Virus record (IMG/VR): IMGVR_UViG_3300010149_000008
DNA from: a virus
Taxonomy: Duplodnaviria; Caudoviricetes
Direction: 5' to 3' (one strand)
Length of the DNA: 64,000 bases
Of the stretch, positions 3,545 to 47,431 are shown piece by piece; positions within the stretch are counted from its first letter, which is position 1, and each line of letters opens with the position of its first letter. The notes beneath the pieces are model-generated. The model ran no database searches. It was not told where the DNA came from and saw only the letters and a program-made list of their open reading frames with translations. The translations under genes were made by a program, and so were the position numbers.

Positions 3545-3615
3545 GTATTTGCAAATAGAATAGCTAAAAATACATACAATATAGCATAATTATAATTGAT
3601 TTTAAAGGTAAAGAA

Positions 3616-4782: not shown

Positions 4783-4840
4783 ATCGTAAAAACTAATAGT
4801 TATATTATATTTAAATACATAAATCAAATAAAGGATTATT

Positions 4841-5218
4841 ATGTTAAGCAACAGAAAAAATACTAGTGTAGTTGTTTCATCTTGGAGAGACTATTTAAGC
4901 GGAAAGCCTGCTAGAAAAAATTTAAACGAAGCAGTTCACAATGCAGACGGAGATAGAGAAGAATGTTTTAAAGCACTAATTTCAGACTTATTAGATCGTG
5001 GTTGGGATGATGATAGAGTTGATGTACTAGTTATTGATGTATTGAAAAAATGTAATATTTCTGATGAAGAGCTAGAGATGATTGCTTACGAACGACCTAG
5101 CAGTCATGAGCTTAACAACGACAAAGATATGGCAGAATATAATGATGATGATTACGACCCAGAGTATAATCCATTAGGCACAGAAGAAGATTCACTTTAT
5201 AATCCAGGCGATCGATAA
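4841..5218 (+). CDS. Hypothetical acidic protein
   Basis: 125 aa, SD aagga; N-terminal VSSWRDYL...LNEA resembles the N-terminus of the previous gene. Confidence 0.6.
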   Translation: MLSNRKNTSVVVSSWRDYLSGKPARKNLNEAVHNADGDREECFKALISDLLDRGWDDDRVDVLVIDVLKKCNISDEELEMIAYERPSSHELNNDKDMAEYNDDDYDPEYNPLGTEEDSLYNPGDR

Positions 5219-30592: not shown

Positions 30593-31441
30593 ATGAGCAA
30601 TTCTTTAGACACACCAATTAATCCAAACCAAATTAAAAGCGAAGGACCAATTCAGGTTTCTAACGTTATGAAAGATGATTTTGGTTTTGAGATACCCCAA
30701 GAAAGTGTACCTTTGCCTTCTAAAGGGATTATTTATCCTGTTGATGGACCACTTTATGGACAAGAAACAATTGATATTAGACCAATGACAGCAAGAGAAG
30801 AAGACATACTTACGTCTCGTGCTTATATTAAGAATGGATCTGTATTAACTAAGCTTTTAGGTTCATGTATCGTTAACAAAACAATTGACCCAGATAATCT
30901 GATTAGTGGTGATAGGAATGCACTTCTTGTTTCATTAAGAATTACAGGCTACGGAGCAGACTATGATGTCGAAGTTGATTGTCCTGAGTGTGGTACTAAG
31001 AGTAAACAAACTTTTGATTTATCACAGTTATCAATTAAAAGATTAGATGTTGAGCCTGTTATTGAAGGAGACAATCTTTTTGAGATTGAGCTACCTGTTA
31101 CAAAAAGAAGCGTTCGAGTAAAGTTCTTGACTGGCCATGACGAGCGTGAAATGATGGTTATTAATGAAAGAAAGAAAAAGAGCGGAATGAAAGTTGAAAC
31201 TGCAATTACTGACAGACTAACACGTTCAATAGTTTCAGTTAATGGCATTACAGACAGAAATAAGCTTACTTTCTTTGTTAAAAACTTGCCAGCTCGAGAT
31301 TCTTTAGCTCTTCGAAGATTTCTAGACAAGCATGAGCCAGGAATTATAATGAAGTCTTGGATGAATTGCCCTTCATGTCATGAGCAAAGCGAGGTGGGCC
31401 TACCTATGGGAGCGTCGTTTTTTTGGCCTGACACCGAATAA
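30593..31441 (+). CDS. Tail/baseplate-hub assembly chaperone (T4 gp26-like)
   Basis: IDIRPMTAREEDILTS, DRNALLVSLRITGYG, CPEC and CPSC Zn-ribbon pairs, ends SFFW. Confidence 0.75.
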   Translation: MSNSLDTPINPNQIKSEGPIQVSNVMKDDFGFEIPQESVPLPSKGIIYPVDGPLYGQETIDIRPMTAREEDILTSRAYIKNGSVLTKLLGSCIVNKTIDPDNLISGDRNALLVSLRITGYGADYDVEVDCPECGTKSKQTFDLSQLSIKRLDVEPVIEGDNLFEIELPVTKRSVRVKFLTGHDEREMMVINERKKKSGMKVETAITDRLTRSIVSVNGITDRNKLTFFVKNLPARDSLALRRFLDKHEPGIIMKSWMNCPSCHEQSEVGLPMGASFFWPDTE

Positions 31442-31652
31442 TAAAGATTTATATTTGGAACAAATATTTATCTTAATGTATCATCTAGGCTTTACGTATT
31501 ATGATGCTTATAAGTGCCCCGTCTGGCAAAGGTTTTGGTTTATAAATAGATTTAAGAAGGAACTAGACGTAGCTAAAGAAAACAATCAAAATCCATACTC
31601 AACATCAAAAAGAAATAATAGCGGAAGTAGATCATATCGTAAAGCTTTTTAA
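31380..31652 (+). CDS. Short chaperone partner (gp51-like); probably made as a frameshift extension of the previous ORF
   Basis: EQIFILMYHLGFTYYDAYKCPVWQRFWFI; overlaps the previous ORF in the +1 frame across a T7 run at 31418-31424. Confidence 0.6.
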   Translation: MSKARWAYLWERRFFGLTPNNKDLYLEQIFILMYHLGFTYYDAYKCPVWQRFWFINRFKKELDVAKENNQNPYSTSKRNNSGSRSYRKAF

Positions 31653-31686: not shown

Positions 31687-31944
31687 ATGAAATACATTAA
31701 CGAAAAAGAATTGTTTTTACATAATATTGCAGCAAAATACATCATAGGCGAAAATGTTGAAGTTGAGCTAGATGGAAACTATGCTGAGCTTGTTTGTCTC
31801 AAAGAACTACTTGATATTTCTAAAGAACTAAAAATTTCATTAGATGAATGTAATTCTTTAGACGTCATTATAGACATAATGCAAAAAAAGAAAGATATTA
31901 CATGTAAATTTGAAAGCTTAACAGGTATTTCCTGGAGACTCTAA
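31687..31944 (+). CDS. Small hypothetical protein before the tape measures
   Basis: 85 aa with SD; TAATG coupling to the next gene. Confidence 0.55.
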   Translation: MKYINEKELFLHNIAAKYIIGENVEVELDGNYAELVCLKELLDISKELKISLDECNSLDVIIDIMQKKKDITCKFESLTGISWRL

Positions 31945-34900
31945 TGAACGTTATTCAACAACAGCTAGATGTATCAAAAAGTCTGCTTTCTGCATTAGAT
32001 TCTTTGCTCACTTCTTACGGAGGCTTATCAGCTAAAAGTTCTGATCAGACTCAGATTGCTTCTCAAGCTGTTGAAAACATGGCTAGTCAGTCTAAAAAAA
32101 TTGATCAAGCTGCTTCAAAGTCTCAAAGCATGTCAAACGAGTTAAACGAAGTTGCTAATACAAAATCTGTTATTGATAATATAACATCAAATAGCAAAAA
32201 AGTTAGTACAGACATTTCACAAAGTATGGAAACAGCAGCTAAGTCTGTAGATAAATCAAAAATAGATATATCAAAGTCTTCTATGCAATCTAAAAAGTCA
32301 AATGAAGATATTTTAAAAACAGGCGACTTGCTTAATGCTACAGGTGATATACACAAAAACTTAGACAAGACAAGCAAAGAAATTTTAGAAATAAAAGATA
32401 CTGTTAAAGGACAGTCTACTTTATTAAAAGTATGGACTAAAATAGTATCAATGCTAGTTAAGGTAAAAGATGCGCTATTTACAGGTGGCTTATCTTTATT
32501 TAAAGATATACCAATGATGTTAATTAATTTTGCAAAATCAGCATTAAATATTTTTACATCTTTAATAGGCTCATTGACAAAATTTCTTGCATTTACAACC
32601 ACACTACCTTTTACAATCGCAAAAATTGCTGTAGGTATAGGTAATCAAATAAGAACTGATTTAGTTGAAACTATACAGGGTGCTGGTGAAGAAGCAAAAG
32701 AGTCTTTTGATTTAACATCAGCTATTGGTAAAAATGCAGATAAAATGACACAAACTGCTAAGGGCCTTCTTAAAACTTTTCAAAACCCTAAGTCTAGACT
32801 AGTAAAACTTTTTGGTCTAGGCGCTTCAGGTGCTGCAACATTTCTCAAAGAAACTTTTAAAGCTGTCGATGATATGGGTCACTATGCTGAAATTTTTGGT
32901 CCATCTATCTTAGGGAGTACAGAGAACGGTCAATTTGTTATAGAAATGCAACGAGCAATGGGAATAGGCTCAAAAGAAATGGCATATTACGCACTAGAAG
33001 CATATAACGCAGGTGAGCATCCTATTGATACTCTTACTAGAACTAGTGAAGTTATAAAAGCTGTTGCTGATAGGAATGATCAAGACTTTAAAGCACTTAC
33101 AAAAGACTTTCATGCACTTAGGACAAATATATCTGAATTTGGACATTTATCTTCAAATGAAATTGCTGATTTGACAGGCAAACTTAGGTCAATGAAAGTT
33201 AAAACAGAAGATGCTGTTAATGTATTTAAAAAGTTTACTACTTTTGAAGAAGCTGCAAAAACTTCTGCAATGCTTTTTCAAACTTTTGAAATGAACATAG
33301 ACGCATTTGATTTATTAAATTCAAGAGATCCAGGCGAAATGCTACAACAATTTAGAGACGCAATGTTTCAGTCAGGCAAAGCGTTTAAAGATCTAAATAG
33401 ACATGAAAAATCTTTAATGGCATCTATAACAGGAGTATCTGAGCAAGGTCTTTCCTCATTAATGAACTATATGAATTTAGGATTAACTCAAGACGAAGCT
33501 AGAAAAAAGCTAGAAGCTCAAGATCCAACTAAAGAACAAGAAAAAATGATTAAAGGTCTAACTTCTACAATAAAATTAGTTCAAAAAACAATGACTTTTT
33601 CAAACCCATTCCAAGCTTTCTTTGCAGGTCTAAGCGACAACGCAATGAACCAAAAAGAGTTGCAAAAAAAATTAATTTCTTTAAGCACAATATATTCTAA
33701 AATTAGAGATATGGGAGCTAGCTTAAATTTATCAAGTGTAAGTGCAGCTTTAAATCCAATAATCAAGGTTTTAAAAAATTTCGATGAAACAGTAAACGGT
33801 GACGGATTTAAAAAAGTCATGGCGATAACAGTAGGTACTGCTAGCAGATTTTTAACACATTTTTCTCATGATATAGAAACTGATCCTAATAAGCTTAAGA
33901 CAATAAACAAGATGTCTGTAGAAGAGAGAGTCAATGAACTCTATAGAGATCTTAGCAGCATGACAAGTTCTGGCGGTTCTCTCTTTCAAAACATGGTTAC
34001 AGTTGGTGGAAAAATAATGGGTGGAATTATTAAAGGTGCAATTTACGGAATTACTGCAGCATTTCATTTATTAGCAGGAGGCACAGATAAGGCAGTTACA
34101 TCGTTAGGTCTTACAATGACAGATCAAATGAAAGAAGATGCTGCTAAAAAAGGAATTCCAGTAAAAGAATACACAATATTAAATTGGTTAGGCATTAGCG
34201 AAAATGATGCTGATGGTATAAGTAATTCATTAGGCACAGCTGTAGGTGACTTTGTAACAAAACTGCCTTCTTTGATGTCAATGGCTTCTTCAGTTTTAGA
34301 AGATTTGTCTGAAGTACTATTACAATTTGCAGGTTCTTTGTTAGGAATTCTTGGTAGCATGACTTCAGAATACTATGACAGCTCAAATAGATTTACACAG
34401 GCAGGTCTTAGAGCAATGGGTTTTGATATTGAAGCAGCAAGATATGCAAAAGACGGTGTTGGTTCTGGAGAAAGTCTAAATATGGACATGTCAGAGCTTA
34501 TAAGTAAAACGCATGTAAAAGGAGAGTTAAAAGAAGGTTATATAGGCACATACATAAGTTATATCGAAGACTTGCAAAAATCATTTCCTCAAGGATCTCC
34601 TGCTCATAACTTTTTAAACAGTCCAAAAACTTCTCAAAATATAAACTATATTAAAAATACTGGAAATTTTAAATTTGATACGCTTGGCAGTATAATTGAT
34701 GATGCAGAAGAACCGCAAAGAGCACAGGCAATACTTGACATAGCAAAGAACGCATACAAAGTAAACTCTTATATGCCTTACGAAGTTTTCAATTTGTTTA
34801 AAGGAGTTGAAAATAAACCGAAGTGGTACGATAAAGATGCTAATTTTGCGAATAAAAAATCAAAAGAACTATCAAATGCTTTAATAAAAGGACCAGATAT

Positions 34901-35429
34901 TGATGGACATTATAGCAGTGATGAAAATTTAGTCTTTAGTTCTGCAAATAATGTAATTAAGTCTCAAGGTCTTGCAATTAATACTTTACAAAGACTAATT
35001 GATTCTAAAAAAATTATTAATAATAAAGGAAAATACGAATTGCCTCAAAGCGTACAAGACTTAGAGTACACAGGTAAAAATACAGTTCTTGTTACACCTG
35101 ATAAAAATTATTTTTTAGATGATTTTGACACAGTATTAGCAGCTAAAAAAGGCGGATTTTTAAATAACTTGTTTATTGGATTAACAGACTACTTCGGTCA
35201 GTCAAAAGAAATTAGTGAAATAAAAATTATAGGTTTAAAAAAAGAGCTAAACAAAGCTGAAGCTTCTGTAAACAAACTTTCAGACAATATTTTAGATAGA
35301 AAAAGTTTGGACTACGAAGCAGACGAAGAAGATTTTGTTAAATTGTTTGATTTATATGACAATATAATAAGTATAATTACAAATAAAGAAAACAAACCAG
35401 TAAAGACAAAAGTAGCATTTGACGTATAA
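31944..35429 (+). CDS. Tape measure protein paralog 1
   Basis: Long helical Ser/Ala/Lys-rich ORF after the chaperones; core shared with the next gene (GNQIRTDLVE, TFEEAAKTSAMLFQTFEMNIDAFD). Confidence 0.7.
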   Translation: MNVIQQQLDVSKSLLSALDSLLTSYGGLSAKSSDQTQIASQAVENMASQSKKIDQAASKSQSMSNELNEVANTKSVIDNITSNSKKVSTDISQSMETAAKSVDKSKIDISKSSMQSKKSNEDILKTGDLLNATGDIHKNLDKTSKEILEIKDTVKGQSTLLKVWTKIVSMLVKVKDALFTGGLSLFKDIPMMLINFAKSALNIFTSLIGSLTKFLAFTTTLPFTIAKIAVGIGNQIRTDLVETIQGAGEEAKESFDLTSAIGKNADKMTQTAKGLLKTFQNPKSRLVKLFGLGASGAATFLKETFKAVDDMGHYAEIFGPSILGSTENGQFVIEMQRAMGIGSKEMAYYALEAYNAGEHPIDTLTRTSEVIKAVADRNDQDFKALTKDFHALRTNISEFGHLSSNEIADLTGKLRSMKVKTEDAVNVFKKFTTFEEAAKTSAMLFQTFEMNIDAFDLLNSRDPGEMLQQFRDAMFQSGKAFKDLNRHEKSLMASITGVSEQGLSSLMNYMNLGLTQDEARKKLEAQDPTKEQEKMIKGLTSTIKLVQKTMTFSNPFQAFFAGLSDNAMNQKELQKKLISLSTIYSKIRDMGASLNLSSVSAALNPIIKVLKNFDETVNGDGFKKVMAITVGTASRFLTHFSHDIETDPNKLKTINKMSVEERVNELYRDLSSMTSSGGSLFQNMVTVGGKIMGGIIKGAIYGITAAFHLLAGGTDKAVTSLGLTMTDQMKEDAAKKGIPVKEYTILNWLGISENDADGISNSLGTAVGDFVTKLPSLMSMASSVLEDLSEVLLQFAGSLLGILGSMTSEYYDSSNRFTQAGLRAMGFDIEAARYAKDGVGSGESLNMDMSELISKTHVKGELKEGYIGTYISYIEDLQKSFPQGSPAHNFLNSPKTSQNINYIKNTGNFKFDTLGSIIDDAEEPQRAQAILDIAKNAYKVNSYMPYEVFNLFKGVENKPKWYDKDANFANKKSKELSNALIKGPDIDGHYSSDENLVFSSANNVIKSQGLAINTLQRLIDSKKIINNKGKYELPQSVQDLEYTGKNTVLVTPDKNYFLDDFDTVLAAKKGGFLNNLFIGLTDYFGQSKEISEIKIIGLKKELNKAEASVNKLSDNILDRKSLDYEADEEDFVKLFDLYDNIISIITNKENKPVKTKVAFDV

Positions 35430-35443
35430 AACAAGGATAAAAA

Positions 35444-38400
35444 ATGGCAGACGAAACAGAAAACAATCCTAATGATCCTAATTCAAGTAATACGTCAGCT
35501 ATAGATGCAAGTCAAACTGACTTGGCTAAAGAGCTAAATAGTGTTCTTGAACAAGTTGCAAACAGACTTGAAAAAATAAATGAAATTACAAAAAGTCAAG
35601 CAGACATGATGATTAACATGGCTCAGACATTCCAAGGTGTTCAAAGTAGTGTTTCAAATATGTCTCAAAGTGCTGAAATAATAACTGAAAGTATTGCACA
35701 AGCTGCTGAGACTGTTATAACTAATATTGATTCTCAATCAATGCAAAACGTTTCACAAAGTCTAGAGGAAGTAAGTGAAACTGCATCTAAAGGCTTGACT
35801 GCAAATTCAAAAAGCTTGACAGGCTTAAAAGAAAGTGTAACTAGCGCTGCAGCTAGCTGTCAAAGTGTGTCTGAAAGTTTATCTGGTGTTAGCGATGACA
35901 TAAGCGGTAACATGTCACAAATTAGTGATGACATACTGACTTTTAGAGAAAATACAAAAGGTTTAAAAGTAGAATCAAGAAGCTTTGTTGAAGCAATTAA
36001 AGAGTTAGATGAAAAAATATCCAATTTAGTAGGAGGTATTGCGTCTACATTTAAAAATATATTTATGGGTGCTTTTGGCATGATAAAAACTGTTGTAAGC
36101 TCTATAGGTTCTCTTGTAGGCGCTGCAACTCAATTTGTTAAATTTTCTTTAACAATACCTTTTACCATAGTGCAAGAAGCTGCAAAGCTAGGTAATCAAA
36201 TAAGGACAGATCTTGTAGAAGTCATTCAACAGTCTGCCGAAGATCTTAAAGAAAGCTTTGACTTTGAATCAAGCATAGGCCAAGGAATTCAAGAAATGAC
36301 TGCTAGAGGAAAAGGAATGCTATTAGAATTCCAAAACCCATCAAGCGAGTTAGTCAAGTTATTTGATATGGGTGCAAGTGGTATTGCTAATATGATCAAA
36401 GAAGTTGGGACAAATGTTGCTGCAATGGGACATTTTTCTGAAATATTTGGAAGAAGTATTATGGGCGACGAAAAAAGACTTAAAAATTTTACTAAAATGG
36501 TTAGAGGTTTTGGTTTTTCTTCAGAGGACATCCAGTATATGGCGTTAGATGCATCAGTCAACTTAGAGCATATTAATGTTAGAATGGCAAAGTTAGGTGT
36601 AACTTTAGAATCAACAGCTAAAGAGTTTGGTGTTGATAGAAAGAGGCTTTCAAAAAACTTTATGATCATGCGTAAAAACATTACGCAATTCGGTCACCTG
36701 TCAGATGAAGAAATTGCTTCAACAACAGCAAGATTAACGCAAATGAGAATTAAGCTAGAAGACGCTGTCGCTGTATTCGATAAGTTTAAAACTTTTGAAG
36801 ACGCTGCAAATTCTGTTGCAATATTATCACAAACTTTTGGTATGAATCTCGATGCGTTTGATATGATACAAGCTAAAAATCCAGAAGATATTATTAATAT
36901 GTTTAGAAATTCTATGCTTGAAACTGGCAGGGCTTTTGAAGATTTAAATAGGTTTGAGAAAGACTTGATGGCACAGCATACAGGAATGTCTGCAGAGTCT
37001 TTAGCAGCGCTTATGAATTATAGAGACTTAGGTTTAACACATCAAGAAGCAGTTGACAAAATGGCTTCTGAAAGACCTGAGGCTAAGCAAATGGCTTCAC
37101 TTAAAAAACTTAATAGCGCAATAAAAGAAGTTCAAAAAGTCATGACTTTCGATAGCCCTTTTAAAGCATTTGCATCAGGTGTCGCAGATAGCACAACTCT
37201 TACGGGAGAACTAAAAGATGTAATGGTTTCTCTAAGTCAAGGATACGAAGGAATATACAATTACGCTAAAAAACTAGATCCTAAAACATGGAGTGGACTA
37301 GTTAAACCTATAAACAGTATTATTAATATAATGTTAGGAATTTTTAAGAGTAAAGCATTTAAAGGAGGACTAACAAAAACTGTAGAAGTTATGTCTCATT
37401 TCATAGGTCAGCTTTTTAATTTTGATGAACCTACAAAAGCTTTACAAAATAGTGCAGTTGCAGCATCAAATGCAGGTAAAGAGCTAAGTGATGGAATGAA
37501 ATCAATTGGCGCAGCAAATGAAAAAAATGTAGGTGTCTTAGTCAATTTGAGTGGTAGAATAATGGGTGGTATTATTAAAGGAGCAGCAATTGGCTTTACA
37601 GCATTACTAATGACTGCAAATGATGGTATTGACACGCTTAAAACAAAGATGGATGCAAGAAACCCTTATAAGAACATAATTGAAACGTTTTTTGGATGGA
37701 ATCCGGGTGATGTTACAAAAATGGGCGACTCATTAAAGAATGCAGTTACTGACTTCTTTTCAAAGTCAGACGGTATGATTAGTTTAACCGGTTGGTTAAT
37801 GGAAGGCTTTGGTGATATTTTTGAAGTAGTTATTGGCATTTTTGGAGGTGCTCTAGCTGCTGGAATTGATAAGATTTTTGGTACACAATTTGGTGCAAAG
37901 CCAAGTGTTGCTTTAGCACAAACTTCTTTGAAAAGTCAAAGAAAACCAGCTAGTGAAACAATGCAAGAAATATCTGAAACTTTAGGTAAAGAAGGGACAG
38001 TTAATAGAAAAAATCTAGCTTCAATGATACACGACTTAAATGACAGAGCATCAACTGTAACTGACAAAGGACAAAAAGCACAGCTACAAACTGTAATAGA
38101 AAGTCTTAAGACAAGATTTACAGAAGAAGGTAATTCTGAGGATGATTTTAGAAATATTGCACTTCAAACAGCTGCAGTTATGCAAGGAATAAGTCAAGGT
38201 GCTTATAAAGGAAGAGATCTTTCTACTATACAGCAAATTAATGCACAAGACGATTTTGCAAACGCTGATGATCATGCTGTACATGGTAATATTGCAACTG
38301 CAGGTTTAGCAGGCGCTGGAGGAGTGCTTTTAGCTTCAAAAATGGCAGCAATGCTTCCGTTCCTTTCAGCAATACCTGGTGTTAATGTAGTTGCAGCAGG

Positions 38401-39304
38401 TGCACTCGGATTGGCTGGAGCAGGAATGATGGCTTACGGCTTGTATGATTGGTTTACAAGTAAAGAAACAAAATCAGTAACTACAGCCCGAGAATTTGAT
38501 AAGTACATGGAAAATAAAATAACTTCAAAGTTAATGGGTAGTCTTGTACAAGGCAGTGATTTTGCGCCTTATTTTAATAATATCTACTTTAAATCTTTCT
38601 GGGCAAATTATGGTGAAGAAATAACAGCTGCAGCTAAAAAATCTAAAGATTCAGGATATATGAACAGCATAAGCCCAGAATTTGAAGTAGGTAATTTTGC
38701 GGGTAGTCCTTATTACCAAAAAATATTTAAAAATACACTTAAAGGTGGACTTACGACTTACGAAGAACAATCAAATACTATTTTAGAACAAAAGCCAAGT
38801 GGTCCTAGTGAAGAGATGGTAAAAGATGGACAATCAGTTGGTGACTTAGAGTTTTTAAACAAGTATATAAATGTAAGTCAAAGCAAAAACATTTTAAACA
38901 ATTTACTAGCATCTGTATCTTTACCTAGTCTTTTTGAAGAAGAAACAAGCGCTACAACAATTGCTGCTTCAAATTATTCAGGTGCAAAAGAAATTAAAAT
39001 AAATAGAAGTAATCGATTGACTAAACAAAAAGTTGAAGATCAAAATCAAAAGCTAACTCAACTTAAAAAGAAGTTAGAAGAAGAAAATATTGAAGTTACA
39101 GCAGACTTTGTCTTTACAAACGAAATTATAGACAAGCTAATGAAGTCGATGGCAAAGAGTAATCTTGTTAGAATATTAGGCATGCCTGAGTATACAAATG
39201 GTGTCATGAGCTTAACAGAGAGTGCATTAGGGTCTAGATGCTTTAACATTGGCAGTGATGGTACTGCTGCGACAATAGAAACAGTCCAGCCTTCTGGAAG
39301 TTAA
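35444..39304 (+). CDS. Tape measure protein paralog 2
   Basis: GNQIRTDLVE, TFEDAANSVAILSQTFGMNLDAFD; extra Gly/Ala-rich hydrophobic segment near the C-terminus. Confidence 0.7.
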   Translation: MADETENNPNDPNSSNTSAIDASQTDLAKELNSVLEQVANRLEKINEITKSQADMMINMAQTFQGVQSSVSNMSQSAEIITESIAQAAETVITNIDSQSMQNVSQSLEEVSETASKGLTANSKSLTGLKESVTSAAASCQSVSESLSGVSDDISGNMSQISDDILTFRENTKGLKVESRSFVEAIKELDEKISNLVGGIASTFKNIFMGAFGMIKTVVSSIGSLVGAATQFVKFSLTIPFTIVQEAAKLGNQIRTDLVEVIQQSAEDLKESFDFESSIGQGIQEMTARGKGMLLEFQNPSSELVKLFDMGASGIANMIKEVGTNVAAMGHFSEIFGRSIMGDEKRLKNFTKMVRGFGFSSEDIQYMALDASVNLEHINVRMAKLGVTLESTAKEFGVDRKRLSKNFMIMRKNITQFGHLSDEEIASTTARLTQMRIKLEDAVAVFDKFKTFEDAANSVAILSQTFGMNLDAFDMIQAKNPEDIINMFRNSMLETGRAFEDLNRFEKDLMAQHTGMSAESLAALMNYRDLGLTHQEAVDKMASERPEAKQMASLKKLNSAIKEVQKVMTFDSPFKAFASGVADSTTLTGELKDVMVSLSQGYEGIYNYAKKLDPKTWSGLVKPINSIINIMLGIFKSKAFKGGLTKTVEVMSHFIGQLFNFDEPTKALQNSAVAASNAGKELSDGMKSIGAANEKNVGVLVNLSGRIMGGIIKGAAIGFTALLMTANDGIDTLKTKMDARNPYKNIIETFFGWNPGDVTKMGDSLKNAVTDFFSKSDGMISLTGWLMEGFGDIFEVVIGIFGGALAAGIDKIFGTQFGAKPSVALAQTSLKSQRKPASETMQEISETLGKEGTVNRKNLASMIHDLNDRASTVTDKGQKAQLQTVIESLKTRFTEEGNSEDDFRNIALQTAAVMQGISQGAYKGRDLSTIQQINAQDDFANADDHAVHGNIATAGLAGAGGVLLASKMAAMLPFLSAIPGVNVVAAGALGLAGAGMMAYGLYDWFTSKETKSVTTAREFDKYMENKITSKLMGSLVQGSDFAPYFNNIYFKSFWANYGEEITAAAKKSKDSGYMNSISPEFEVGNFAGSPYYQKIFKNTLKGGLTTYEEQSNTILEQKPSGPSEEMVKDGQSVGDLEFLNKYINVSQSKNILNNLLASVSLPSLFEEETSATTIAASNYSGAKEIKINRSNRLTKQKVEDQNQKLTQLKKKLEEENIEVTADFVFTNEIIDKLMKSMAKSNLVRILGMPEYTNGVMSLTESALGSRCFNIGSDGTAATIETVQPSGS

Positions 39305-39319: not shown

Positions 39320-39577
39320 ATGAATAAATTAGATGTAAAAGAAGTGATTACAAAACTTGGACTTGACAAGGCACTATGCAAAGCATTTGCTAAAAAGACT
39401 GGAAAGACCGAGGAAGAATATTTAAAAATGTTTAACGAAATTGCAGAAAAAGAACTTAATGCTATTGGAAAATCACTAGTTGAAGGTCAAATAGATGAAA
39501 CTAAGTTCTCTCGATTACGAGGTTTGTCTCTGCAAGATTTTATGAAAGATAATGATAATATTATCAAGGACAAATAA
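39320..39577 (+). CDS. Small hypothetical protein in the tail operon
   Basis: 85-aa ORF fills the gap between tape measure 2 and the baseplate gene. Confidence 0.5.
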   Translation: MNKLDVKEVITKLGLDKALCKAFAKKTGKTEEEYLKMFNEIAEKELNAIGKSLVEGQIDETKFSRLRGLSLQDFMKDNDNIIKDK

Positions 39578-39579
39578 AA

Positions 39580-42423
39580 ATGGCAAACAAGTATATTCTC
39601 AATCCTGATGGGTCGATACAAAAATATAAAGAAGATGCAAGCCAAGAGCTTGAAGGAAAAATATATCCAGACAAATTAACTGATGATGATGAGAGTTCTT
39701 ATTTAAGTGATTTACCTGCAGCAAAACAACTCAATAATACTATTTATGATGGTGTTCAAGCAGATATAGACTTTGGTTCGTTGTCAGATGATGCTGATTC
39801 AGGACATAAAAAAATAATATCTAATATCGAAAACGACAAGAGTTTTGGTTTTATTGACACAGATGGCAATGTAAAAGATACTCCTGGGAAAATATCTTCT
39901 TATACCCCCTTTAATTCTTATAGCGAAGTCAACGAAAAAGATGAAAAAATAAAAACAGTTGTCTTTGCAGATGAACTAGAAATGTTAGGAGGAATTAGAC
40001 TTGATGCGGATGCTCTAGACATTTCAGGGAAATTATTAGGTGCACTTTTTTCTTACTTTGCCGAGTCTATACTAAGAATAGTACTTGTTGAAGTAATTGT
40101 AATAGCAAATAAAGCTTTTGTTGCAGCAAATGGAAGTCAAACATCTACTTTTGAAAGATATAGCCTTAGAATAGGCAGATATGATTTTACAGAATTTGAT
40201 TTGTTTTCTAGATATGTCTTTAATGTTTTAAACTATCCACACGAAAGTTCAGGCACTGTTCAAAGAATTCTTGCTTATTTTGCAGGGTTTACGCAATGGC
40301 TAGCACCAGATATGTTAATAGACTTTGATGAAATTTTAAAAGAAACTAAAAAACAAAACAATAAGCTAGAGTTTGCTGTTAGCGCTTTTGATCCTAATTG
40401 GGCTAAGGCTTTAATGGTTATTGCAGAAAGTCTTGTAAGTATTGGGCTTGCTGCGTTATCAAATCAAACAGTCAATAATAGAGCAAACCTCCTATTTAGA
40501 AAATTTTATCAAGAAAGACACTGGAATCAAGAAATACTCTACAAAGCTAAAGAAAAAGAAGCTGCTGTTCCAGACTTATTTACAGACTTAAACTATTATT
40601 ACTTTAAGTTTTATATAGAAAGAATACAAATTGGCTTAAAATATATCAATAAGTACGTTTATAAATACACGTATCTTAGAGATAATGCAATAGATTCACC
40701 TTTCAATAGAGTTTCAGGAAACAAATCAAACAAAAATATTGATGCTGCTATTGAATTAATGACTTTTGATGGAAAAGCACTTACAGGTGACATCGCAGAA
40801 ATATTAACTCAAGGTGAATATAAACCAGAGAAAAGTACTGTGAAACCCACAGCTGTAGCTGCAGCAGCTGCAGCTGCAGCGGCTATAGGCTTAGATGCAC
40901 CTGCAGACGCAAGTTCACGTTCTCAGCAAGCAATAAAGTCTTATAGCTGGTTATATAAAGACTCTGATGGAGAGAAAACAGACGATGAAATATCTATAGC
41001 TAAAGGTAAAAAACCTGGCCAATCTACGAGAATAAGAGCTTTGCCGCAGATGTTTTCAATGCATCCGTCACTTTATAGAGCGTTAGCAGCAAATGGAAAG
41101 ACAGATATAAAATTAGGTAAAGATTTAATGCAAAATTTTTATACACTTTCTGATGATGAAAAAAGAATTCCTGATTATGCTGTGACTGAAATTGAAAATG
41201 CATTAGAGGCAGAGTATATGCCTTTTTACTTGCATGACATTAGAACGAACGAGATTTTGTCTTTTCATGCTTTTATAGAAAGTATAACTGACTCTTTTAA
41301 TCCAGAATACAACTCTAGCAGCGGTTTTGGTAGAATTGATGATGTTCGAACATATGTAAAAACAACAAGAAATATTAATGTATCTTTTACACTAGCATCA
41401 ACATCAGAGTCTGATCATGATTTAATGTGGTATCAAATAAATAAAATTGTTGCAATGGTATATCCACAATGGTCTGATGGCTTTAATGTCTTAGAGAGAA
41501 AAGAAGGTGAAGTTGTATTTGACAAAAGCGGCAATCCAAAAATAGATTTTAAATATCCTTTTACACAAGTACCAAATGCTTCACCTTTAGTAAGACTAAG
41601 AGTTGGTGACGTTATTAAAAGCAACTATAGTAGAACAAACCTTTCTAGACTTCACGGAGTAGGCGAAAGACAGGCAGACTTAGGTGCTGAAAAAGCATTA
41701 GATGCAAGCAATCGACATTATGAACTATTACCGGGAAATTACAAAGTAGATCAAGGAGGCTCAGATATTTTAGGCTTAACTCTTTCTTTTGGTAAAAGAC
41801 CAATGATGGTTACAATAGATTCTCCTGTTAAAATAGCAGAACTTATAGATAGTGCAGCTGATGAAGACAACTTTTATAAAGTTAAAATTGCTAATCCTTT
41901 TTATAGTGAAAACGAAGCAAAGTCAGTTGCAGATATTTTTAAACTACCTCCTGAGATACCAGCTGATGAAACAATCGAAGTTTATGCAGATGCATCAAAA
42001 ATAGTTGCAAGTCAAATTCACAAACTCAGTAAAGGAGGAGCTGCAGACGATCTTATGAAGCCTATGAAAGATGGAAAAGTTAATAATCCTATAACTAAGT
42101 CTTATGAAAGTGGAATGAGTAGAGGCTTGGCAGGATTTATAACGCAGTTAGATGTTAATTACAATGAAGTGCCTTGGGAGACTAGTAGAGTAGGTTCGAA
42201 AGCGCCAATGTTAGTAAAGTTAACCATAAACTTTGCACCAATTCATGATATACCTCCTGGGTTAGATCATAATGGAATGCTTAGAGCACCTGTTTATAAT
42301 GTAGGTAGAATAAACAACGAGTTTTTTGGAGACCCTAAGGATCACACGTATACAGGTTCTGGAAGAGACTTAGCAATGGCTAAATATAAATTTTTAAAAT
42401 ATAAAGAAGGATCAGGTAATTAA
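39580..42423 (+). CDS. Baseplate/tail-tube initiator protein (gp48/gp54, P2 gpU or CIS tube-initiator-like C-terminal domain)
   Basis: FHAFIESITDSFNPEYN..SGFGRIDDVRTY..TTRNINVSF, SPLVRLRVGD, GFITQLDVNY, APMLVKLTINF. Confidence 0.7.
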   Translation: MANKYILNPDGSIQKYKEDASQELEGKIYPDKLTDDDESSYLSDLPAAKQLNNTIYDGVQADIDFGSLSDDADSGHKKIISNIENDKSFGFIDTDGNVKDTPGKISSYTPFNSYSEVNEKDEKIKTVVFADELEMLGGIRLDADALDISGKLLGALFSYFAESILRIVLVEVIVIANKAFVAANGSQTSTFERYSLRIGRYDFTEFDLFSRYVFNVLNYPHESSGTVQRILAYFAGFTQWLAPDMLIDFDEILKETKKQNNKLEFAVSAFDPNWAKALMVIAESLVSIGLAALSNQTVNNRANLLFRKFYQERHWNQEILYKAKEKEAAVPDLFTDLNYYYFKFYIERIQIGLKYINKYVYKYTYLRDNAIDSPFNRVSGNKSNKNIDAAIELMTFDGKALTGDIAEILTQGEYKPEKSTVKPTAVAAAAAAAAAIGLDAPADASSRSQQAIKSYSWLYKDSDGEKTDDEISIAKGKKPGQSTRIRALPQMFSMHPSLYRALAANGKTDIKLGKDLMQNFYTLSDDEKRIPDYAVTEIENALEAEYMPFYLHDIRTNEILSFHAFIESITDSFNPEYNSSSGFGRIDDVRTYVKTTRNINVSFTLASTSESDHDLMWYQINKIVAMVYPQWSDGFNVLERKEGEVVFDKSGNPKIDFKYPFTQVPNASPLVRLRVGDVIKSNYSRTNLSRLHGVGERQADLGAEKALDASNRHYELLPGNYKVDQGGSDILGLTLSFGKRPMMVTIDSPVKIAELIDSAADEDNFYKVKIANPFYSENEAKSVADIFKLPPEIPADETIEVYADASKIVASQIHKLSKGGAADDLMKPMKDGKVNNPITKSYESGMSRGLAGFITQLDVNYNEVPWETSRVGSKAPMLVKLTINFAPIHDIPPGLDHNGMLRAPVYNVGRINNEFFGDPKDHTYTGSGRDLAMAKYKFLKYKEGSGN

Positions 42424-42425
42424 CT

Positions 42426-42728
42426 ATGTCAAAATTTATAAGTAGGAAAGGTGGCATACCAAATCTTTCGTCTGCTATTTACTATGCTGTTGAAAATGGT
42501 ACAATAAGATTTAATACAGTTGTAGCAGATGGTAGAAGACTTGATCACTATGCTCAAGAATTTTATGGTAATGGTTTAAACTGGTGGATTATTGCAGCTG
42601 CAAGTGGAATTAGATGGCCTCTTGGAATTGGAGCAGGAGTAGCAAACAAAGGATCCATAGGAGACGACAGTATAGTGTTGTTTATACCGAACATAGAAGA
42701 CGTAATAAAACTCAAAGCAGGTAGATAA
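42426..42728 (+). CDS. LysM-like baseplate protein (P2 gpX-like)
   Basis: DGRRLDHYAQEFYGNGLNWWIIAAASGI...LFIP. Confidence 0.8.
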   Translation: MSKFISRKGGIPNLSSAIYYAVENGTIRFNTVVADGRRLDHYAQEFYGNGLNWWIIAAASGIRWPLGIGAGVANKGSIGDDSIVLFIPNIEDVIKLKAGR

Positions 42729-45700
42729 TGTCTTACGTAAATTATTTAAGAGAATCAAATATAAGCAAGTATACAAATATTATGTCCAATGAAGATGTAA
42801 TAAAAGAATTACTTAAACAATCTTCAGACGAAACATCAAAACTTGCAGCTGAAAAGCCTGAAGTTATAAAAGCAATTTCAGATGTATTTCAATCAATAAC
42901 GACAGAAGCTAAAACTGTTAATGAAATGATTGAAGATGTATACTTGAATTATTGCAAAGTTGTTCCTGGCGATGCAGAAGCAGAAGCAAAAGCAAAAGCA
43001 GAAGAAGTCTTAACAGAATTATCTTCATTTATAACAATAATACACGATGATGCAGAAAACAAGTTTTCTACTAGCACAGAAAATGTTTATACTTTTGATA
43101 ATAGAATAGATATAGGTGATCCTACAACTAAGCCTACTTTGTCTCCTAAAAAACTTAAAGATGTATTTAAGTTCCAAACTCCTTTTGTGTCTTTTAAGAG
43201 TCGTCCAAAACAAAATAAAATAGCAGGTGGAACTACAAAGTATGAACACTATAACAAATACGGATTACTTAACGCTGGCGCTGCAGAAGTTGGTACTATT
43301 TTTACAGCAGGAGGAGTAGCGTCTAGAACAATAAATTCTTCTTTTAAGAACATTTATAATACACATGAAATCTGTCACGCAAAAGCTGATGAAGCAACAG
43401 CTTCATCAAGAGGCGTTGAGGACGCAAGTCAGCTTAATTTAGTTAATGCAACTGGAAGTGGCTCTATACGTAATATTTGTGCAGCTACAAAAGATAAGCC
43501 TAGTCTTGCTTACATACTGATTGATCATCCAGACTTGCGTATAGGAACAAGAAATAGTTTAGAACTATCTACTTTTTTTAACTTATTAAATACAGTAGAA
43601 CTTAGCAAATGCCAACCTTATTTAGACGCTGTATTTGTATTGCCTTCAAATATATCATCAAATAATAATGGTAGAGTTTTTAAAACAGCTTCAATAACAC
43701 AGTTTTTTGAAGGAACGCCTGTATCGCCAAATGTTACAACTGATAATTTTAAAAAAATTGAAGCAAATTTTAAAAGAAAAGTAGGATCTGGTAAAACTGC
43801 AAAAATACAAGATGCTGTTGATACAAACATGTCAGCTTTTACAATGCCACAAACTATAAACAATTTTAACGAAAAGTTTATCGGGCATGGAGAAAACGTA
43901 CAGTTTAACACGGATATGAATTTTGCTAGACAAAACGCAGTTCATGATATCACGAGGCCTTTTTTAACTATAAAGAGTTTTAACATAGATGTTGCTCCAA
44001 CTCAAGGTCTCATGTCTTTTAAGACAGGAAAGCTTTCTTTAGTGCTTCATGATAGAACTCGCATGGTCGATATTGCTCCTTTCATCAAGCCTGATCTTTT
44101 TGGTTCATTTGGCGCTGAAATTTCTATTGAATATGGATGGAGTCATATCGACGGCAAGGTAGAAAATCCTGATGATAAAAAAGCTAGTTACTTAGGGCAA
44201 TTTTTAGAAAAATCTAGAGTAACAGAAAAATACATTATTACAAACTCTTCTTTTACAATGGATGCAACAGGACAAGTTAATATAGAGCTTTCAATAGCAA
44301 TGAGAGGGCCAGTTGACATAAGAAGTGTAAAGCTTCATTCTAATCCTATGCAAAACATTAAAACAAACTCAGTTTTAAAAAGCGAAAAAACTTTTCAAGA
44401 CATTGTAAGCATATTTAATGATCCTGCTCATAAGTATATTTTAGATAAAACTGATGGATATACGCACACAGATGAAAGTGGAGCCAATCCTCAATATATT
44501 TATTATGGAAAGCAGGTATTTCCTATAATTGAAAATTTAGTAACTGCAATTAGAAGTGAAACAAATCAAGTCCAGCTTGATGATCCTAAGTCTATTAAAG
44601 AAGCAAAATATGAAGTTATTAAATCAATTGCTGCAAATTTAACTAAAAGTGTAAGAACAAAATGGCTTAAAGCAAATACTGTTAAGCAAATAATCGAGGC
44701 TTTTAATCTTCTTGATCCAAAGCCTACACAAGAAGGCAAACTTTATTTAAGCGGAAAGTCGCGGCCTTTACTTTATATTCAAACTCATGAAGCTGATATA
44801 AATAATCTCGTAATTAATGCCTTTAGAAAAGATGAGATAAAAATACTCATGAGTAGCATTTTAAATTATATTGATAATGTCTACAATACATACGTTGTAA
44901 ATCAAGATAGTTTGCAACAAAAAGAAAGCACTTTAATAAACAAGATAATTGGTGGTCTAGATAAAATTGATCCTTTTATTAATACTGAGTTTTTAAAGCA
45001 ATATGAAAGAATAATACTAGGTGATGACACATCATCAGGCATATCTGTTAATAACTTAGGGGAAGAAGGAGAAAACGTAGGCTATGTTAGCTTTGGTTCT
45101 TTTATAACTGGTCTTATTGGTACACATATGGCTGCAGTAGGAAAATTTGATGAAATACAAATTGTAAGCTATACTTGTAATGAAAATTGTGGTCTTTTTT
45201 CAAACATGAACGTTTCTTCAATTTTGCTGCCTAAAGATGAATTAAGAGACTTTTTAGGTGACTTATTTGAAGATGGCACAACTATGACGTTAGAAGGAAT
45301 TATTTCTCAAATAATTAATAGATTTATAAATACTAGAACAAATATTTGTTATGGTCTTGCAGAATTTTATGTTATTGATGAAGAAACTGGGAACGTTGAA
45401 GCAGTTTTTAAAGAAGATGCGCAAAAAAAGAACATTAATGACAAACTAAGTACAATTTACCAAATGCTAGCTAATTCAGGTAAATCTCAACAAAGCCAGC
45501 AAACAACAGAAATTTCAGATGTTAGATTTGTTATGCCAAAAATTAAATTTACATTTGATACGCTTACAAGCAAAGATAGCAGTTTTGAAAAAACAATCTC
45601 TAGAATTTCTATATTTGATCAAAATGATAATCCTTTCGGTTCAGTTAACACTATAATGAAAGACGTTTATGATAGACAAATAGTTGCAACAGCTGCAAAA

Positions 45701-47431
45701 TTAAACAAAATTCGTCGTGATCATAAGTCTACTTATATTGATAAAAAAACAAAAAAAATAAAAAAGAAAACAACAAAAAACGTAGCAAGTGATATGCATG
45801 TTGCTGTTAGAGAAAGATTTTATCAAAAAAGTTGGTCTTTAATAAAAGATTTAATAAATCAAGGTGTCTTAATAGAAATTTCTGAAGGTGTTTATGAAAT
45901 TGGAGGTCAATTTAAATTACAAGGTCTTAAAAATAGCTTTAAATCAATTATGCCTTCTATAACTTACGGAACACAAAATTCTGCTGTAATAGAAGCTTCA
46001 GTTTCTACTGTTAATGAAGCCAAGCTTAATACAGTCTATTTAACAAGATCAGATAGAGCTGTAGATGGGAAAAATAAAATAGCAACAAAAGTAGCTTTCT
46101 CAAAAGACTTACCTCTTAGAGTTTTACCCTCGCAAGCAAACGTAACAATATACGGCTGTCCTTTTGTTAATTTTGCTCAATATATTTTCTTAGACTTTGA
46201 AACAGGAACAACTATTGACAATTCATATGCAATTACAGGCATTAAGCATGATTTATCTCCTGGGAAATTTACAACACAACTAACACTTTCTTACGGTGAT
46301 GTATACGGTAAATACGAAAATTCAGCTCAAACAATTGCAAGAACAATTAATGACATTGTAAAGCCTAAATCAATAGTAAGTGCTGTAGATGATGTGAGTA
46401 CTATTAAGATTAATTCATTTAAGAAAAGAGGAGATAAGCTAGGCAAAAAAGCAGCACTTATAGAAGTTACAAAAACATTTAATGGGAATATTAATTTTAA
46501 CATTAAGATTGTAGCTTCAAGAAGTAACGAAGTAGTCATTAAAAAAACTGGTGTCGTTAGCGATTATGATATGATTATATATGTTAACGAAAATAAACAA
46601 GGCAACCCTGCTGAGCTAGCTGATGGGAAATCTATAGATATATCTTTAGACATGACAAACGGATCTAATGATATTAAATTTTTCCAAGGAACAGCAGCTG
46701 ACTTTGGCATGCATGCTTATGCAAAAGCTAAGAATCTTTTTAAAACCCCGAATAGAATACCTACAGGTGGATTTGGCTTTGATACAAAAAGTCTTGCAAA
46801 CTTTAAGTCAATGGGTGTGAATGTGTTTAACAAAATTAGTGGTGATTTTATTAAAAACAGTTCAGCTGAAAGACTAAAATTTTTGAAAGATGCATTAACT
46901 CAACATGTTGGTTTCTTTTTTAAATTAAAATTTAAGTATAATGGTGTTGGCACTAATATTGAGCCTGATGCTATAAATCCTTCTTTAACAATAGACTGGA
47001 ATTTATTTGACAAAGTAAAAGTAGCTAATTTATTTAAAGCGTATGAAGATGTCAATGAAACAAACAACATTAGTTTAAATCCAGAGTACATTAATAAAGT
47101 ATCTAAAATATTAACTGACAACAACATACAAACAATTGAAGGTAGAAAAGAAAGTGTAAGTTTTTATACTAGCACTATAAAAAACATTAAAAGAAAACAA
47201 AAACTAAGTGCGTATGCAAAGCCTGGAAGTATAATGTTTACAACTGCTGGTTTAGAATTTGAAGTTATTGATGGATTTAAGTTTATTGGAAAAAAGAAAG
47301 TTAAAGTGGGTAAAAAAACAGTCGAAAAGATTGTAGCTGAATTTTCTTATAAAAAAGGCTCAATATCACTTAAGGATTTATTAGACAATATTACAGATCC
47401 TAAGAAACTTTATAATTTAAAGTCTAGATAA
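42728..47431 (+). CDS. Large baseplate hub protein (gp27/gpD/VgrG-like) with extensions
   Basis: ISIEYGWS, ANVTIYGCPFVNFAQYIFLDF, YAITGIKHDLSPGKFTTQLTL; follows the gpX-like gene. Confidence 0.65.
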   Translation: MSYVNYLRESNISKYTNIMSNEDVIKELLKQSSDETSKLAAEKPEVIKAISDVFQSITTEAKTVNEMIEDVYLNYCKVVPGDAEAEAKAKAEEVLTELSSFITIIHDDAENKFSTSTENVYTFDNRIDIGDPTTKPTLSPKKLKDVFKFQTPFVSFKSRPKQNKIAGGTTKYEHYNKYGLLNAGAAEVGTIFTAGGVASRTINSSFKNIYNTHEICHAKADEATASSRGVEDASQLNLVNATGSGSIRNICAATKDKPSLAYILIDHPDLRIGTRNSLELSTFFNLLNTVELSKCQPYLDAVFVLPSNISSNNNGRVFKTASITQFFEGTPVSPNVTTDNFKKIEANFKRKVGSGKTAKIQDAVDTNMSAFTMPQTINNFNEKFIGHGENVQFNTDMNFARQNAVHDITRPFLTIKSFNIDVAPTQGLMSFKTGKLSLVLHDRTRMVDIAPFIKPDLFGSFGAEISIEYGWSHIDGKVENPDDKKASYLGQFLEKSRVTEKYIITNSSFTMDATGQVNIELSIAMRGPVDIRSVKLHSNPMQNIKTNSVLKSEKTFQDIVSIFNDPAHKYILDKTDGYTHTDESGANPQYIYYGKQVFPIIENLVTAIRSETNQVQLDDPKSIKEAKYEVIKSIAANLTKSVRTKWLKANTVKQIIEAFNLLDPKPTQEGKLYLSGKSRPLLYIQTHEADINNLVINAFRKDEIKILMSSILNYIDNVYNTYVVNQDSLQQKESTLINKIIGGLDKIDPFINTEFLKQYERIILGDDTSSGISVNNLGEEGENVGYVSFGSFITGLIGTHMAAVGKFDEIQIVSYTCNENCGLFSNMNVSSILLPKDELRDFLGDLFEDGTTMTLEGIISQIINRFINTRTNICYGLAEFYVIDEETGNVEAVFKEDAQKKNINDKLSTIYQMLANSGKSQQSQQTTEISDVRFVMPKIKFTFDTLTSKDSSFEKTISRISIFDQNDNPFGSVNTIMKDVYDRQIVATAAKLNKIRRDHKSTYIDKKTKKIKKKTTKNVASDMHVAVRERFYQKSWSLIKDLINQGVLIEISEGVYEIGGQFKLQGLKNSFKSIMPSITYGTQNSAVIEASVSTVNEAKLNTVYLTRSDRAVDGKNKIATKVAFSKDLPLRVLPSQANVTIYGCPFVNFAQYIFLDFETGTTIDNSYAITGIKHDLSPGKFTTQLTLSYGDVYGKYENSAQTIARTINDIVKPKSIVSAVDDVSTIKINSFKKRGDKLGKKAALIEVTKTFNGNINFNIKIVASRSNEVVIKKTGVVSDYDMIIYVNENKQGNPAELADGKSIDISLDMTNGSNDIKFFQGTAADFGMHAYAKAKNLFKTPNRIPTGGFGFDTKSLANFKSMGVNVFNKISGDFIKNSSAERLKFLKDALTQHVGFFFKLKFKYNGVGTNIEPDAINPSLTIDWNLFDKVKVANLFKAYEDVNETNNISLNPEYINKVSKILTDNNIQTIEGRKESVSFYTSTIKNIKRKQKLSAYAKPGSIMFTTAGLEFEVIDGFKFIGKKKVKVGKKTVEKIVAEFSYKKGSISLKDLLDNITDPKKLYNLKSR

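Follow-up and report, generated by a model that had tools for sequence, protein, structure and literature searches.

Long-tailed phages, like related injection devices, are taken to have their tail length set by the product of one tape-measure gene. The window analysed here (64,000 nucleotides) belongs, with its open reading frames, to a 133-kb record of an uncultured marine T4-like jumbo phage and carries two adjacent genes, c1 and c2, encoding putative tape measures. This raises the question of how the two genes arose and whether both products could act in a single tail. Both reading frames were recovered exactly as in the preliminary description, which had claimed two tandem, full-length paralogs of 1161 and 1286 aa, and both are intact. 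The locus is arranged as follows:

30593..31441, + strand: gp26/gp51-like baseplate hub or hub-assembly gene, 282 aa (PF12322 T4_baseplate, 1.2e-18; phrog_150, 5.5e-23)
31380..31652, + strand: 90-aa ORF overlapping the gp26/gp51-like gene, present in nearly all related loci (weak DUF6760 match, 0.0046)
31687..31944, + strand: small conserved 85-aa ORF, recognized by its orthologs, the stop of which overlaps the c1 start (TAATG)
31944..35429, + strand: putative tape-measure paralog c1 (P0001, 1161 aa; ORF call, BLASTP, AF2 model, BFVD Foldseek)
35430..35443, + strand: c1-c2 spacer of 14 nt containing AAGGA, the ribosome-binding site for c2
35444..39304, + strand: putative tape-measure paralog c2 (P0002, 1286 aa; ORF call, BLASTP, weak phrog_305 match, ESM Atlas)
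39320..39577, + strand: small conserved 85-aa ORF right after c2 (synteny)
39580-47431, + strand: conserved genes of 947, 100 and 1567 aa, presumed baseplate genes (synteny)

The gene order sheath, sheath, tube, (third sheath), gp26/51-like gene, small ORFs, c1/c2 family, small ORF, and genes for proteins of approximately 900, 100 and 1500 aa was found in all related loci. The gp26/gp51-like gene, whose families PF12322 and phrog_150 include gp26 and gp51 of T4, is located directly upstream of c1/c2 and its place is kept throughout. The overlapping 90-aa ORF may be a frameshift extension of this gene in a chaperone-like arrangement. Relatives with the duplication, and several that have one copy, carry orthologs of the upstream 85-aa ORF. 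Family searches with this ORF, with the downstream 85-aa ORF and with the 947-, 100- and 1567-aa genes gave no match, and the two flanking 85-aa ORFs, when compared as possible paralogs of each other, proved unrelated. Neither T4 gp27 (phrog_1135) nor gp28 was detected in the 133-kb record; gp48 (phrog_230) was not found there either, a result of little weight, as its model matched none of the control genomes. The genes c1 and c2 are predicted to be co-transcribed, judging from the short spacer with its AAGGA motif, overlaps of 1–8 nt between the two genes in three relatives (L005, L006 and L008) and the lack of a detectable + strand terminator between them, with promoter and terminator scans at chance level.

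P0001 and P0002 are true paralogs. In a pairwise BLASTP alignment they share 35% identity over 805 columns (E 1e-128). The motif strings quoted earlier for a collinear core of about 450 aa all lie in this alignment, but the collinear region is considerably larger, comprising approximately 800 aa (P0001 2–799, P0002 40–804) with the best-conserved stretch at residues ~200–640. Both proteins contain three hydrophobic segments (~205–240, 690–725 and 785–812). Beyond the common region they differ, and the following parts can be distinguished:

31944..32456, + strand: c1 N-terminal S/K/Q-rich long-helix region, residues 1–171, of varying length among relatives
32457..34301, + strand: c1 region common to c2, residues 172–786, with a confidently folded helical domain at 230–510
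34302..35426, + strand: c1-specific C-terminal module, residues 787–1161, with a folded helical domain at 870–1020 (profiles, AF2)
36008..37834, + strand: c2 region common to c1, residues 189–797
37835..39301, + strand: c2-specific C-terminal module, residues 798–1286, with folded helical domains at ~820–935 and 1010–1110
38276..38452, + strand: Gly/Ala-rich hydrophobic hairpin, P0002 residues 945–1003, a lineage-specific insertion of low model confidence

Two copies are present in 11 related viral contigs and in two ENA genomes (L084 and L087), while a single copy occupies this position in about 25 more distant, well-flanked relatives. In the phylogenetic tree, c1 and c2 form two sister clades of mirrored topology (supports 1.0 for c1, 0.96 for c2 and 0.97 for their union). 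The pair goes back to a single ancient tandem duplication, which took place in a subclade of T4-like jumbo phages that are marine and uncultured. Neither copy has been lost or disrupted, their spacing is close or overlapping, and dN/dS values between the window and L084 (0.22 for c1, 0.21 for c2) indicate similar purifying selection on each. A connection of the pair with the multiple sheath genes of this phage, suggested previously, turned out to be weak. Three sheath genes together with a single tape-measure gene are common among relatives (L011, L012, L015, L027, L030, L034, L040 and L041), and therefore the sheath triplication is older than the duplication and uncoupled from it.

The lengths of c1 and c2 change in step. 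They were correlated among 10 genomes (r 0.93, permutation p 0.00035), and the correlation persisted with phylogenetically independent contrasts (r 0.958, n = 9), although it is based on these 10 genomes only and is driven by three or four large contrasts. The length ratio ranges from 0.99 to 1.11, and the variable N-terminal and C-terminal parts both add to the co-variation. Lengths of neighbouring genes did not co-vary with that of c1 (r 0.09, −0.68 and −0.37). Gene conversion was considered as the origin of the parallel N-terminal extensions of c1 and c2 in L004 and was rejected, since the extensions are only 22% identical. This length co-variation, which is new here, favours two chains lying parallel in one tail, and because the lengths change in step, c1 and c2 probably act together in one tail.

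The C-terminal parts behave differently from the common region. No similarity between the last 375 aa of c1 and the last 490 aa of c2 was detected in profile-profile comparison beyond a shared IMGGIIKG segment. Each module is conserved only within its own clade, and profiles of the two tails, used to ask which module is ancestral, did not match any single-copy relative. In all, 27 c1-type and 39 c2-type proteins were collected. The folded domain of the c1 module (870–1020) was modelled with a pLDDT of 82–95. The Gly/Ala hairpin, described earlier as exclusive to the second paralog, is indeed present in P0002 and absent from P0001. It is an insertion of 60–80 aa found in P0002, P0003, P0005 and P0010, and is lacking in the close orthologs P0004, P0006–P0009 and P0011 as well as in all remoter c2 proteins; some c1 orthologs have hydrophobic C-terminal segments of their own. 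Because it occurs sporadically and most c2 orthologs lack it, the hairpin was rejected as the reason for the duplication, and the idea that one chain forms a membrane channel by means of the hairpin found no support for the same reason.

The explanation to which we give an even chance is that, after one tandem duplication, both chains were kept and form a hetero-oligomeric ruler in one tail tube. A ruler of this kind had been put forward in the preliminary description; it now gains support from the length co-variation, while its membrane-channel component does not. In the mechanism that we infer for co-assembly, which extends to the presence of both chains in the virion, their stoichiometry and their C-terminal roles, c1 and c2 would lie side by side and in register via the shared N-terminal ~800 residues, as one hetero-oligomeric ruler inside the tail tube, and both would have to fit one tail length. 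The unrelated C-terminal modules (375 and 490 aa) might perform different tasks, either at the end near the baseplate hub or, once ejected, in the host envelope. A stricter version, in which the hetero-oligomer is obligate and two diverged, co-evolving parallel chains of equal length each deliver a different C-terminal module to hub or envelope, is plausible but is proposed more tentatively, at somewhat below an even chance. Complex prediction with c1 170–640 and c2 190–659 returned a score of 0.00, a "no answer" that speaks neither for nor against binding.

The same length correlation would be expected if one copy was a co-assembling scaffold and not a ruler. A division of labour has to be considered, in which only one copy is the ruler and the other is either a passenger of the tail lumen or baseplate that is ejected, or an assembly scaffold that departs. 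The wholly different, clade-restricted C-terminal modules are typical of functional divergence, and in Staphylococcus jumbo phages the second copy of a comparable pair is annotated as tail lysin. A passenger or helper has, however, no obvious need to track the length of the ruler, yet the ratio of both lengths stays close to unity as given above. Moreover, both copies retain the common 800 aa, with the long-helix N-terminus, under similar constraint, and neither P0001 nor P0002 contains an enzymatic Pfam domain. We regard this division of labour as unlikely.

Less probable still is that the locus encodes no tape measure, and that c1 and c2 are large helical proteins of a different kind, belonging to the tail, the baseplate or a membrane. 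In favour of this, no curated tape-measure family matches: hmmscan of P0001 and P0002 against Pfam (including PF06791, PF10145, PF20155 and PF25671), PHROG and NCBIfam gave no match. Parts of the P0001 and P0002 models are compact helical domains, not one extended helix, and distant members of the family contain 10–15 membrane-like segments. Further searches identified no specific relative: tblastn with the two proteins as queries matched none of 50,697 phage records, profile searches among PDB sequences hit nothing beyond designed helical bundles and similar fortuitous helical matches, and comparison of the P0001 model with the PDB (Foldseek) and with 48,161 representative chains (VIA-align) gave only generic helical hairpins (Z<8).

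Several lines of evidence stand against this. The c1/c2 position is between the tube and gp26/51-like genes and the large conserved downstream genes in all related loci, and the 133-kb record yielded no further candidate for a tape measure. The AF2 model of P0001 is almost entirely alpha-helical with very long N-terminal helices (47–69 residues within the first 254 aa, modelled with the low confidence usual for such proteins), and that of P0002 700–1286 is almost all helix as well. P0001 gave 52 matches in BFVD (Foldseek, E<=1e-3), and the named ones among the matches listed are all tape measure or minor tail proteins. The TM-scores of these matches are low (0.1–0.3), as the helical models are floppy, and hence the fold evidence relies on labels and probabilities instead of tight superposition; the C-terminal model of P0002 had no BFVD match at E<=1e-3. 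With ESM Atlas features of P0002, 94 of 100 named neighbours belonged to PF10145 or PF20155 tape-measure clusters. The tape-measure model phrog_305 gave weak hits in the genome scan, on P0002 (residues ~25–268, 19.5 bits) and on the distant family member P0221, but 10 of the 14 bacterial and archaeal control genomes were matched by it as well. Position, the almost all-helical predicted fold, Foldseek, language-model neighbours and the syntenic genes of cultured relatives agree in indicating that c1 and c2 probably set tail length. The tape-measure-like family to which they belong is very large, with 2279 representative clusters at E<=1e-3.

If both are tape measures, they might still not work in parallel. 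An end-to-end arrangement, with the tail length being the sum of two rulers, would be in line with the long proteins (1500–1900 aa) of distant single-copy relatives, which demonstrate that long rulers occur in this group. The proteins of the sister single-copy lineages are much shorter (1000–1250 aa) and thus resemble each copy and not their sum; furthermore, near-equal lengths and the same N-terminal and core regions are better compatible with an in-register parallel arrangement, and in series both chains would need both end-docking functions, which makes this possibility very improbable. The least probable of all is the use of c1 and c2 as alternative rulers producing two virion populations with slightly different tail lengths, for which we know of no precedent: even though c2 is longer than c1 by 34–130 aa in nine of the 10 genomes, the order is reversed in L087, the difference (−12 to +130 aa) has no conserved offset, and the tight or overlapping gene spacing suggests joint production.

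The existence of a conserved, diverged pair with jointly evolving lengths suggests that rulers can be built as hetero-oligomers. If this is true, the ruler of these phages would be the first demonstrated case of a heteromeric tape measure, and nature would have provided a system for studying the number of chains, and the portion of a chain, that determine tail length; the co-variation itself offers a comparative handle on which chain parts measure. Genes of this family are currently termed "hypothetical" in marine viromes, because no Pfam, PHROG or NCBIfam model covers them. The significance is limited in that the phage is uncultured and in that tandem tape-measure-like pairs have already been noted, without explanation, in Staphylococcus jumbo phages.

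In the literature on two or second tape measures in one phage, no direct precedent was found. The most similar case is that of the Staphylococcus jumbo phages MarsHill, Madawaska, Machias and vB_SauM-UFV_DC4, in which a gene for a "tape measure protein" stands in tandem with one for a "tail lysin" (1962 and 1990 aa in DC4; bioRxiv 10.1101/2020.12.14.422802; PMC10638138). In both cases a jumbo myovirus has two adjacent tape-measure-like genes of nearly the same length, whose products are helical and contain membrane-like segments. The Staphylococcus pair, in contrast, is related to the marine one neither by phage lineage nor by protein family, and its copies contain peptidoglycan-hydrolase domains (PF18013, PF00877 and peptidase M23), none of which is found in the marine pair. 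No analysis of length co-variation or duplication history was found in the accessible text on these phages.

Compared with T4, c1 and c2 occupy a place like that of gp29 (PF25671, baseplate hub subunit, tail-length determinator), downstream of a PF12322 (gp26/gp51) gene. Unlike c1 and c2, gp29 is a single-copy protein of 590 aa, and the T4 order is gp51-27-28-29, with the two genes that were not detected in the marine record between gp51 and gp29. The PF25671 T4_Tape_measure model (27-bit cut-off) matched nothing in the 133-kb record, even with the threshold relaxed to E<=10, and the A1 profile detected nothing significant in T4 gp29, the immuto tape measure or the Mel-JY01 proteins. PF10145 PhageMin_Tail and PF20155 TMP_3 are the nearest named families by language-model neighbours and BFVD fold likeness, yet without an HMM match. 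Among cultured phages, the hub gene led to Flavobacterium phage vB_FspM_immuto (NC_055915) and Microcystis phage Mel-JY01 as the closest relatives. A 1006-aa gene annotated as tail tape measure is located at the c1/c2 place in immuto, without detectable sequence similarity to the c1/c2 family, and a gene for a 1348-aa protein in Mel-JY01, with a weak BLAST match to the family (23% identity over 409 aa, E 1e-4). The latter protein matches three tape-measure PHROGs (1.8e-9 to 8e-6). Both phages share the order sheath, tube, PF12322 hub gene, small ORF(s), the gene in question, small ORF and genes for proteins of ~700–2200 and ~100 aa, and in both a single copy stands at the place of the marine pair.

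Both open reading frames of the tandem pair were recovered at exactly the coordinates given in the preliminary description. The upstream protein (P0001) is referred to as c1 and the downstream protein (P0002) as c2.

31944-35429, + strand, ORF of c1 (1161 aa)
35444-39304, + strand, ORF of c2 (1286 aa)
31687-31944, + strand, small conserved 85-aa ORF, TAATG-coupled to c1
39320-39577, + strand, small conserved 85-aa ORF directly 3' of the pair

The start of c1 is joined to the small upstream ORF by a TAATG overlap, while the 14-nt spacer between c1 and c2 contains AAGGA. No terminator-like site was found between the two genes on the + strand in consensus scans, which overall were at chance level. 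The two small ORFs bracketing the pair are not paralogous to one another. BLASTP aligned P0001 and P0002 over 805 columns (35% identity, E 1e-128), which places their paralogy, as judged from sequence, far beyond chance. The collinear core noticed earlier is real, but it extends over about 800 residues instead of 450. The C-terminal 375 residues of c1 and 490 of c2 were unalignable, also in profile-profile comparison, and their sole resemblance is an IMGGIIKG-type hydrophobic segment where the unalignable parts begin.

Neither protein had a match in hmmscan searches of Pfam, PHROG and NCBIfam, and PF25671, the T4 tape measure, was absent from the whole 133-kb viral record containing the window (contigs with identical proteins reach 256 kb). 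In the genome scan, phrog_305 (tail length tape measure) matched residues ~25-268 of P0002 with 19.5 bits, a match treated as weak because the same model also hits 10 of the 14 control genomes; P0221, a remote member of the family, was matched at 3.7e-5. Upstream of the pair, a gp15-like gene, two tail-sheath-domain genes, the tube gene and a third large gene (putative sheath 3) are followed by a 282-aa hub gene (30593-31441, + strand). The latter belongs to the T4 gp26/gp51 family (PF12322, 1.2e-18; phrog_150, 5.5e-23), both models taking in gp26 as well as gp51; the order in T4 itself is gp51-gp27-gp28-gp29 (tape measure)-gp48-gp54. In the hub-gene region (30593-31652), an ORF overlapping the end of the hub gene, with a weak match to DUF6760, is kept in nearly all relatives. 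Together they fit a chaperone-with-extension arrangement upstream of a tape measure.

The position of the family was identical in 79 of 79 related viral loci, with the tube gene, an optional sheath 3, the gp26/51-like gene, the small ORF that overlaps it and a further small ORF on the 5' side, and a small ORF followed by genes of ~900, 100 and 1500 aa on the 3' side. In the window, the downstream genes (39320-47431; 85, 947, 100 and 1567 aa), whose order is kept in every relative, had no match in the family searches; from their position they would be expected to encode proteins of the hub, spike and wedge, with the ~100-aa gene at the expected place of a spike-tip protein. Cultured relatives, located via the hub gene, have the same gene order as the family loci. 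The syntenic gene of Flavobacterium phage immuto is annotated as tail tape measure protein, and the syntenic 1348-aa protein of Microcystis phage Mel-JY01, a weak BLAST match of P0001, is matched by three tape-measure PHROGs (1.8e-9, 1.6e-8 and 8.3e-6). The 2255-aa protein encoded after it (L083:17355-24122) shows a match to the WDGH domain (4.3e-16) and weakly matches the 947-aa protein of the window.

An AlphaFold2 model of P0001, based on a 66-sequence alignment, is almost entirely alpha-helical:

residues 2-254, four very long predicted helices, low confidence
residues 230-510, confidently folded helical domain (pLDDT 80-92)
residues 510-870, further long helices
residues 870-1020, second confident helical domain

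Foldseek returned 52 matches among predicted viral structures (E<=1e-3) with low TM-scores, as expected since such helical models are floppy; all named matches among the best 50 of the 52 are tape measure or minor tail proteins. For P0002, 67 of 100 named neighbours in the ESM Atlas fall into PF10145 clusters and 27 into PF20155 clusters, both tape-measure families. This support from synteny, cultured relatives, fold, Foldseek matches and ESM neighbours is indirect yet consistent, and c1 and c2 are very probably tape measures. With 2279 representative clusters at E<=1e-3 (821 at E<=1e-30), the family is large, but none of the three libraries searched seems to hold a model of it. It is apparently an extensive group of tape measures, from myoviruses of marine and other environments, that lacks a model.

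Relatives were found to carry both genes as well. When all ORFs of the related loci were scored with a profile of the shared core, two tandem copies were detected in 11 loci (L001-L009, L014 and L020) and one copy in all others, about 25 of which extend for several kb beyond it in both directions. Two more pair-bearing genomes (L084 and L087) came from ENA assemblies. In a maximum likelihood tree of the core, rooted on distant long members, the upstream copies form one clade and the downstream copies its sister clade (SH-like support: c1 1.0, c2 0.96, the two united 0.97), and both repeat the same branching order of genomes. By this topology the gene was duplicated once, in an ancestor from which a subclade descends, and both copies persist in all descendants sampled. 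The C-terminal modules are conserved, clade-specific and mutually exclusive (27 c1-type and 39 c2-type among 232 collected proteins), and neither was recognisable in single-copy relatives. Compared with L084, the nearest relative with DNA sequence, the window gave Nei-Gojobori dN/dS values of 0.22 for c1 and 0.21 for c2, at a dS of about 1.4 where synonymous sites are near saturation; both copies are therefore constrained, and about equally so.

The lengths of the two proteins change together. The pair is complete in 10 genomes, where c1 spans 1077-1490 aa and c2 1111-1564 aa (ratio c2/c1 0.99-1.11), and the two lengths correlate with a Pearson r of 0.93 (permutation p 0.00035) and, for phylogenetically independent contrasts, of 0.958 (n = 9). 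Both the variable N-terminal part (r 0.98) and the C-terminal part (r 0.87) contribute to the co-variation, while the core is invariant in length. In L004, both copies gained 70-100 residues N-terminally and more C-terminally; since the two N-terminal extensions are only 22% identical, recent gene conversion was ruled out in favour of parallel change. Neighbouring genes did not co-vary with c1 (947-like gene, r 0.09; sheath 3, -0.68; 1567-like gene, -0.37). Joint length change after separation is expected if both proteins must fit one structure of given length, and it is the main support for c1 and c2 chains that would lie parallel and in register as one hetero-oligomeric ruler. A hetero-oligomer is the best-supported mechanism for the pair. 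For the full parallel, in-register model, the case for and against is evenly balanced, because the genomes are few and most of the signal comes from three or four contrasts. The same co-variation argues against an end-to-end arrangement of c1 and c2, and against one copy being a free passenger protein.

The hetero-oligomer had been proposed together with a division of labour in which the chain bearing a Gly/Ala hairpin forms the membrane channel, and this second part found no support.

38276-38452, + strand, Gly/Ala-rich, uncharged, hydrophobic double segment (hairpin; P0002 residues 945-1003)

The hairpin, modelled with low confidence, is indeed present in P0002 and absent from c1. In an alignment of 39 c2-type proteins it is an insertion in P0002, P0003, P0005 and P0010 only, and is missing from most close orthologs (P0004, P0006-P0009 and P0011; the core of P0004 is 90% identical to that of P0002) and all remoter c2 proteins. 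Among very close orthologs it acts as an insertion/deletion cassette of 60-80 aa. Some c1 orthologs (L004, L006 and L008) have hydrophobic C-terminal segments of their own, and Gly/Ala blocks occur in some single-copy relatives. Distant single-copy members (1500-1900 aa) have, from residue ~680 to ~1290, a block of about 10-15 membrane-like segments of strong hydrophobicity, far above the usual number for a tape measure:

L054:9641-14986, member with hydrophobic block
L063:9716-15259, member with hydrophobic block
L064:9371-15091, member with hydrophobic block
L077:9653-15304, member with hydrophobic block
L078:9368-15073, member with hydrophobic block

The phages of these five members have no third sheath gene. 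As in many tape measures, hydrophobic modules thus vary across the whole family, and they do not set c2 apart from c1.

A connection of the pair to the multiple sheath genes, also suggested earlier, was not borne out. Relatives with sheath 3 and a single tape-measure gene are common (L011, L012, L015, L027, L030, L034, L040 and L041), so that the sheath triplication predates the tape-measure duplication and is uncoupled from it. In L087 (a 138-kb ENA contig), the position of the third sheath-like gene, elsewhere one gene of 1050-1340 aa, holds two called genes (1982-4925; 512 and 428 aa), for which a split, a frameshift or an assembly error may be responsible.

No direct precedent for two tape measures emerged from the literature searches. 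The general tandem arrangement is already on record in an unrelated lineage, the Staphylococcus jumbo phages (MarsHill, Madawaska, Machias and vB_SauM-UFV_DC4; bioRxiv 10.1101/2020.12.14.422802, PMC10638138), where two neighbouring DC4 genes, of 1962 and 1990 aa, are listed as tail lysozyme and tail tape measure protein. The marine pair, in contrast, belongs to a different protein family, lacks any enzymatic domain and, on the comparative evidence, stems from a genuine tandem duplication of a tape-measure-like gene that is both old and conserved, and for which its history and the co-evolution of the two lengths were shown as well.
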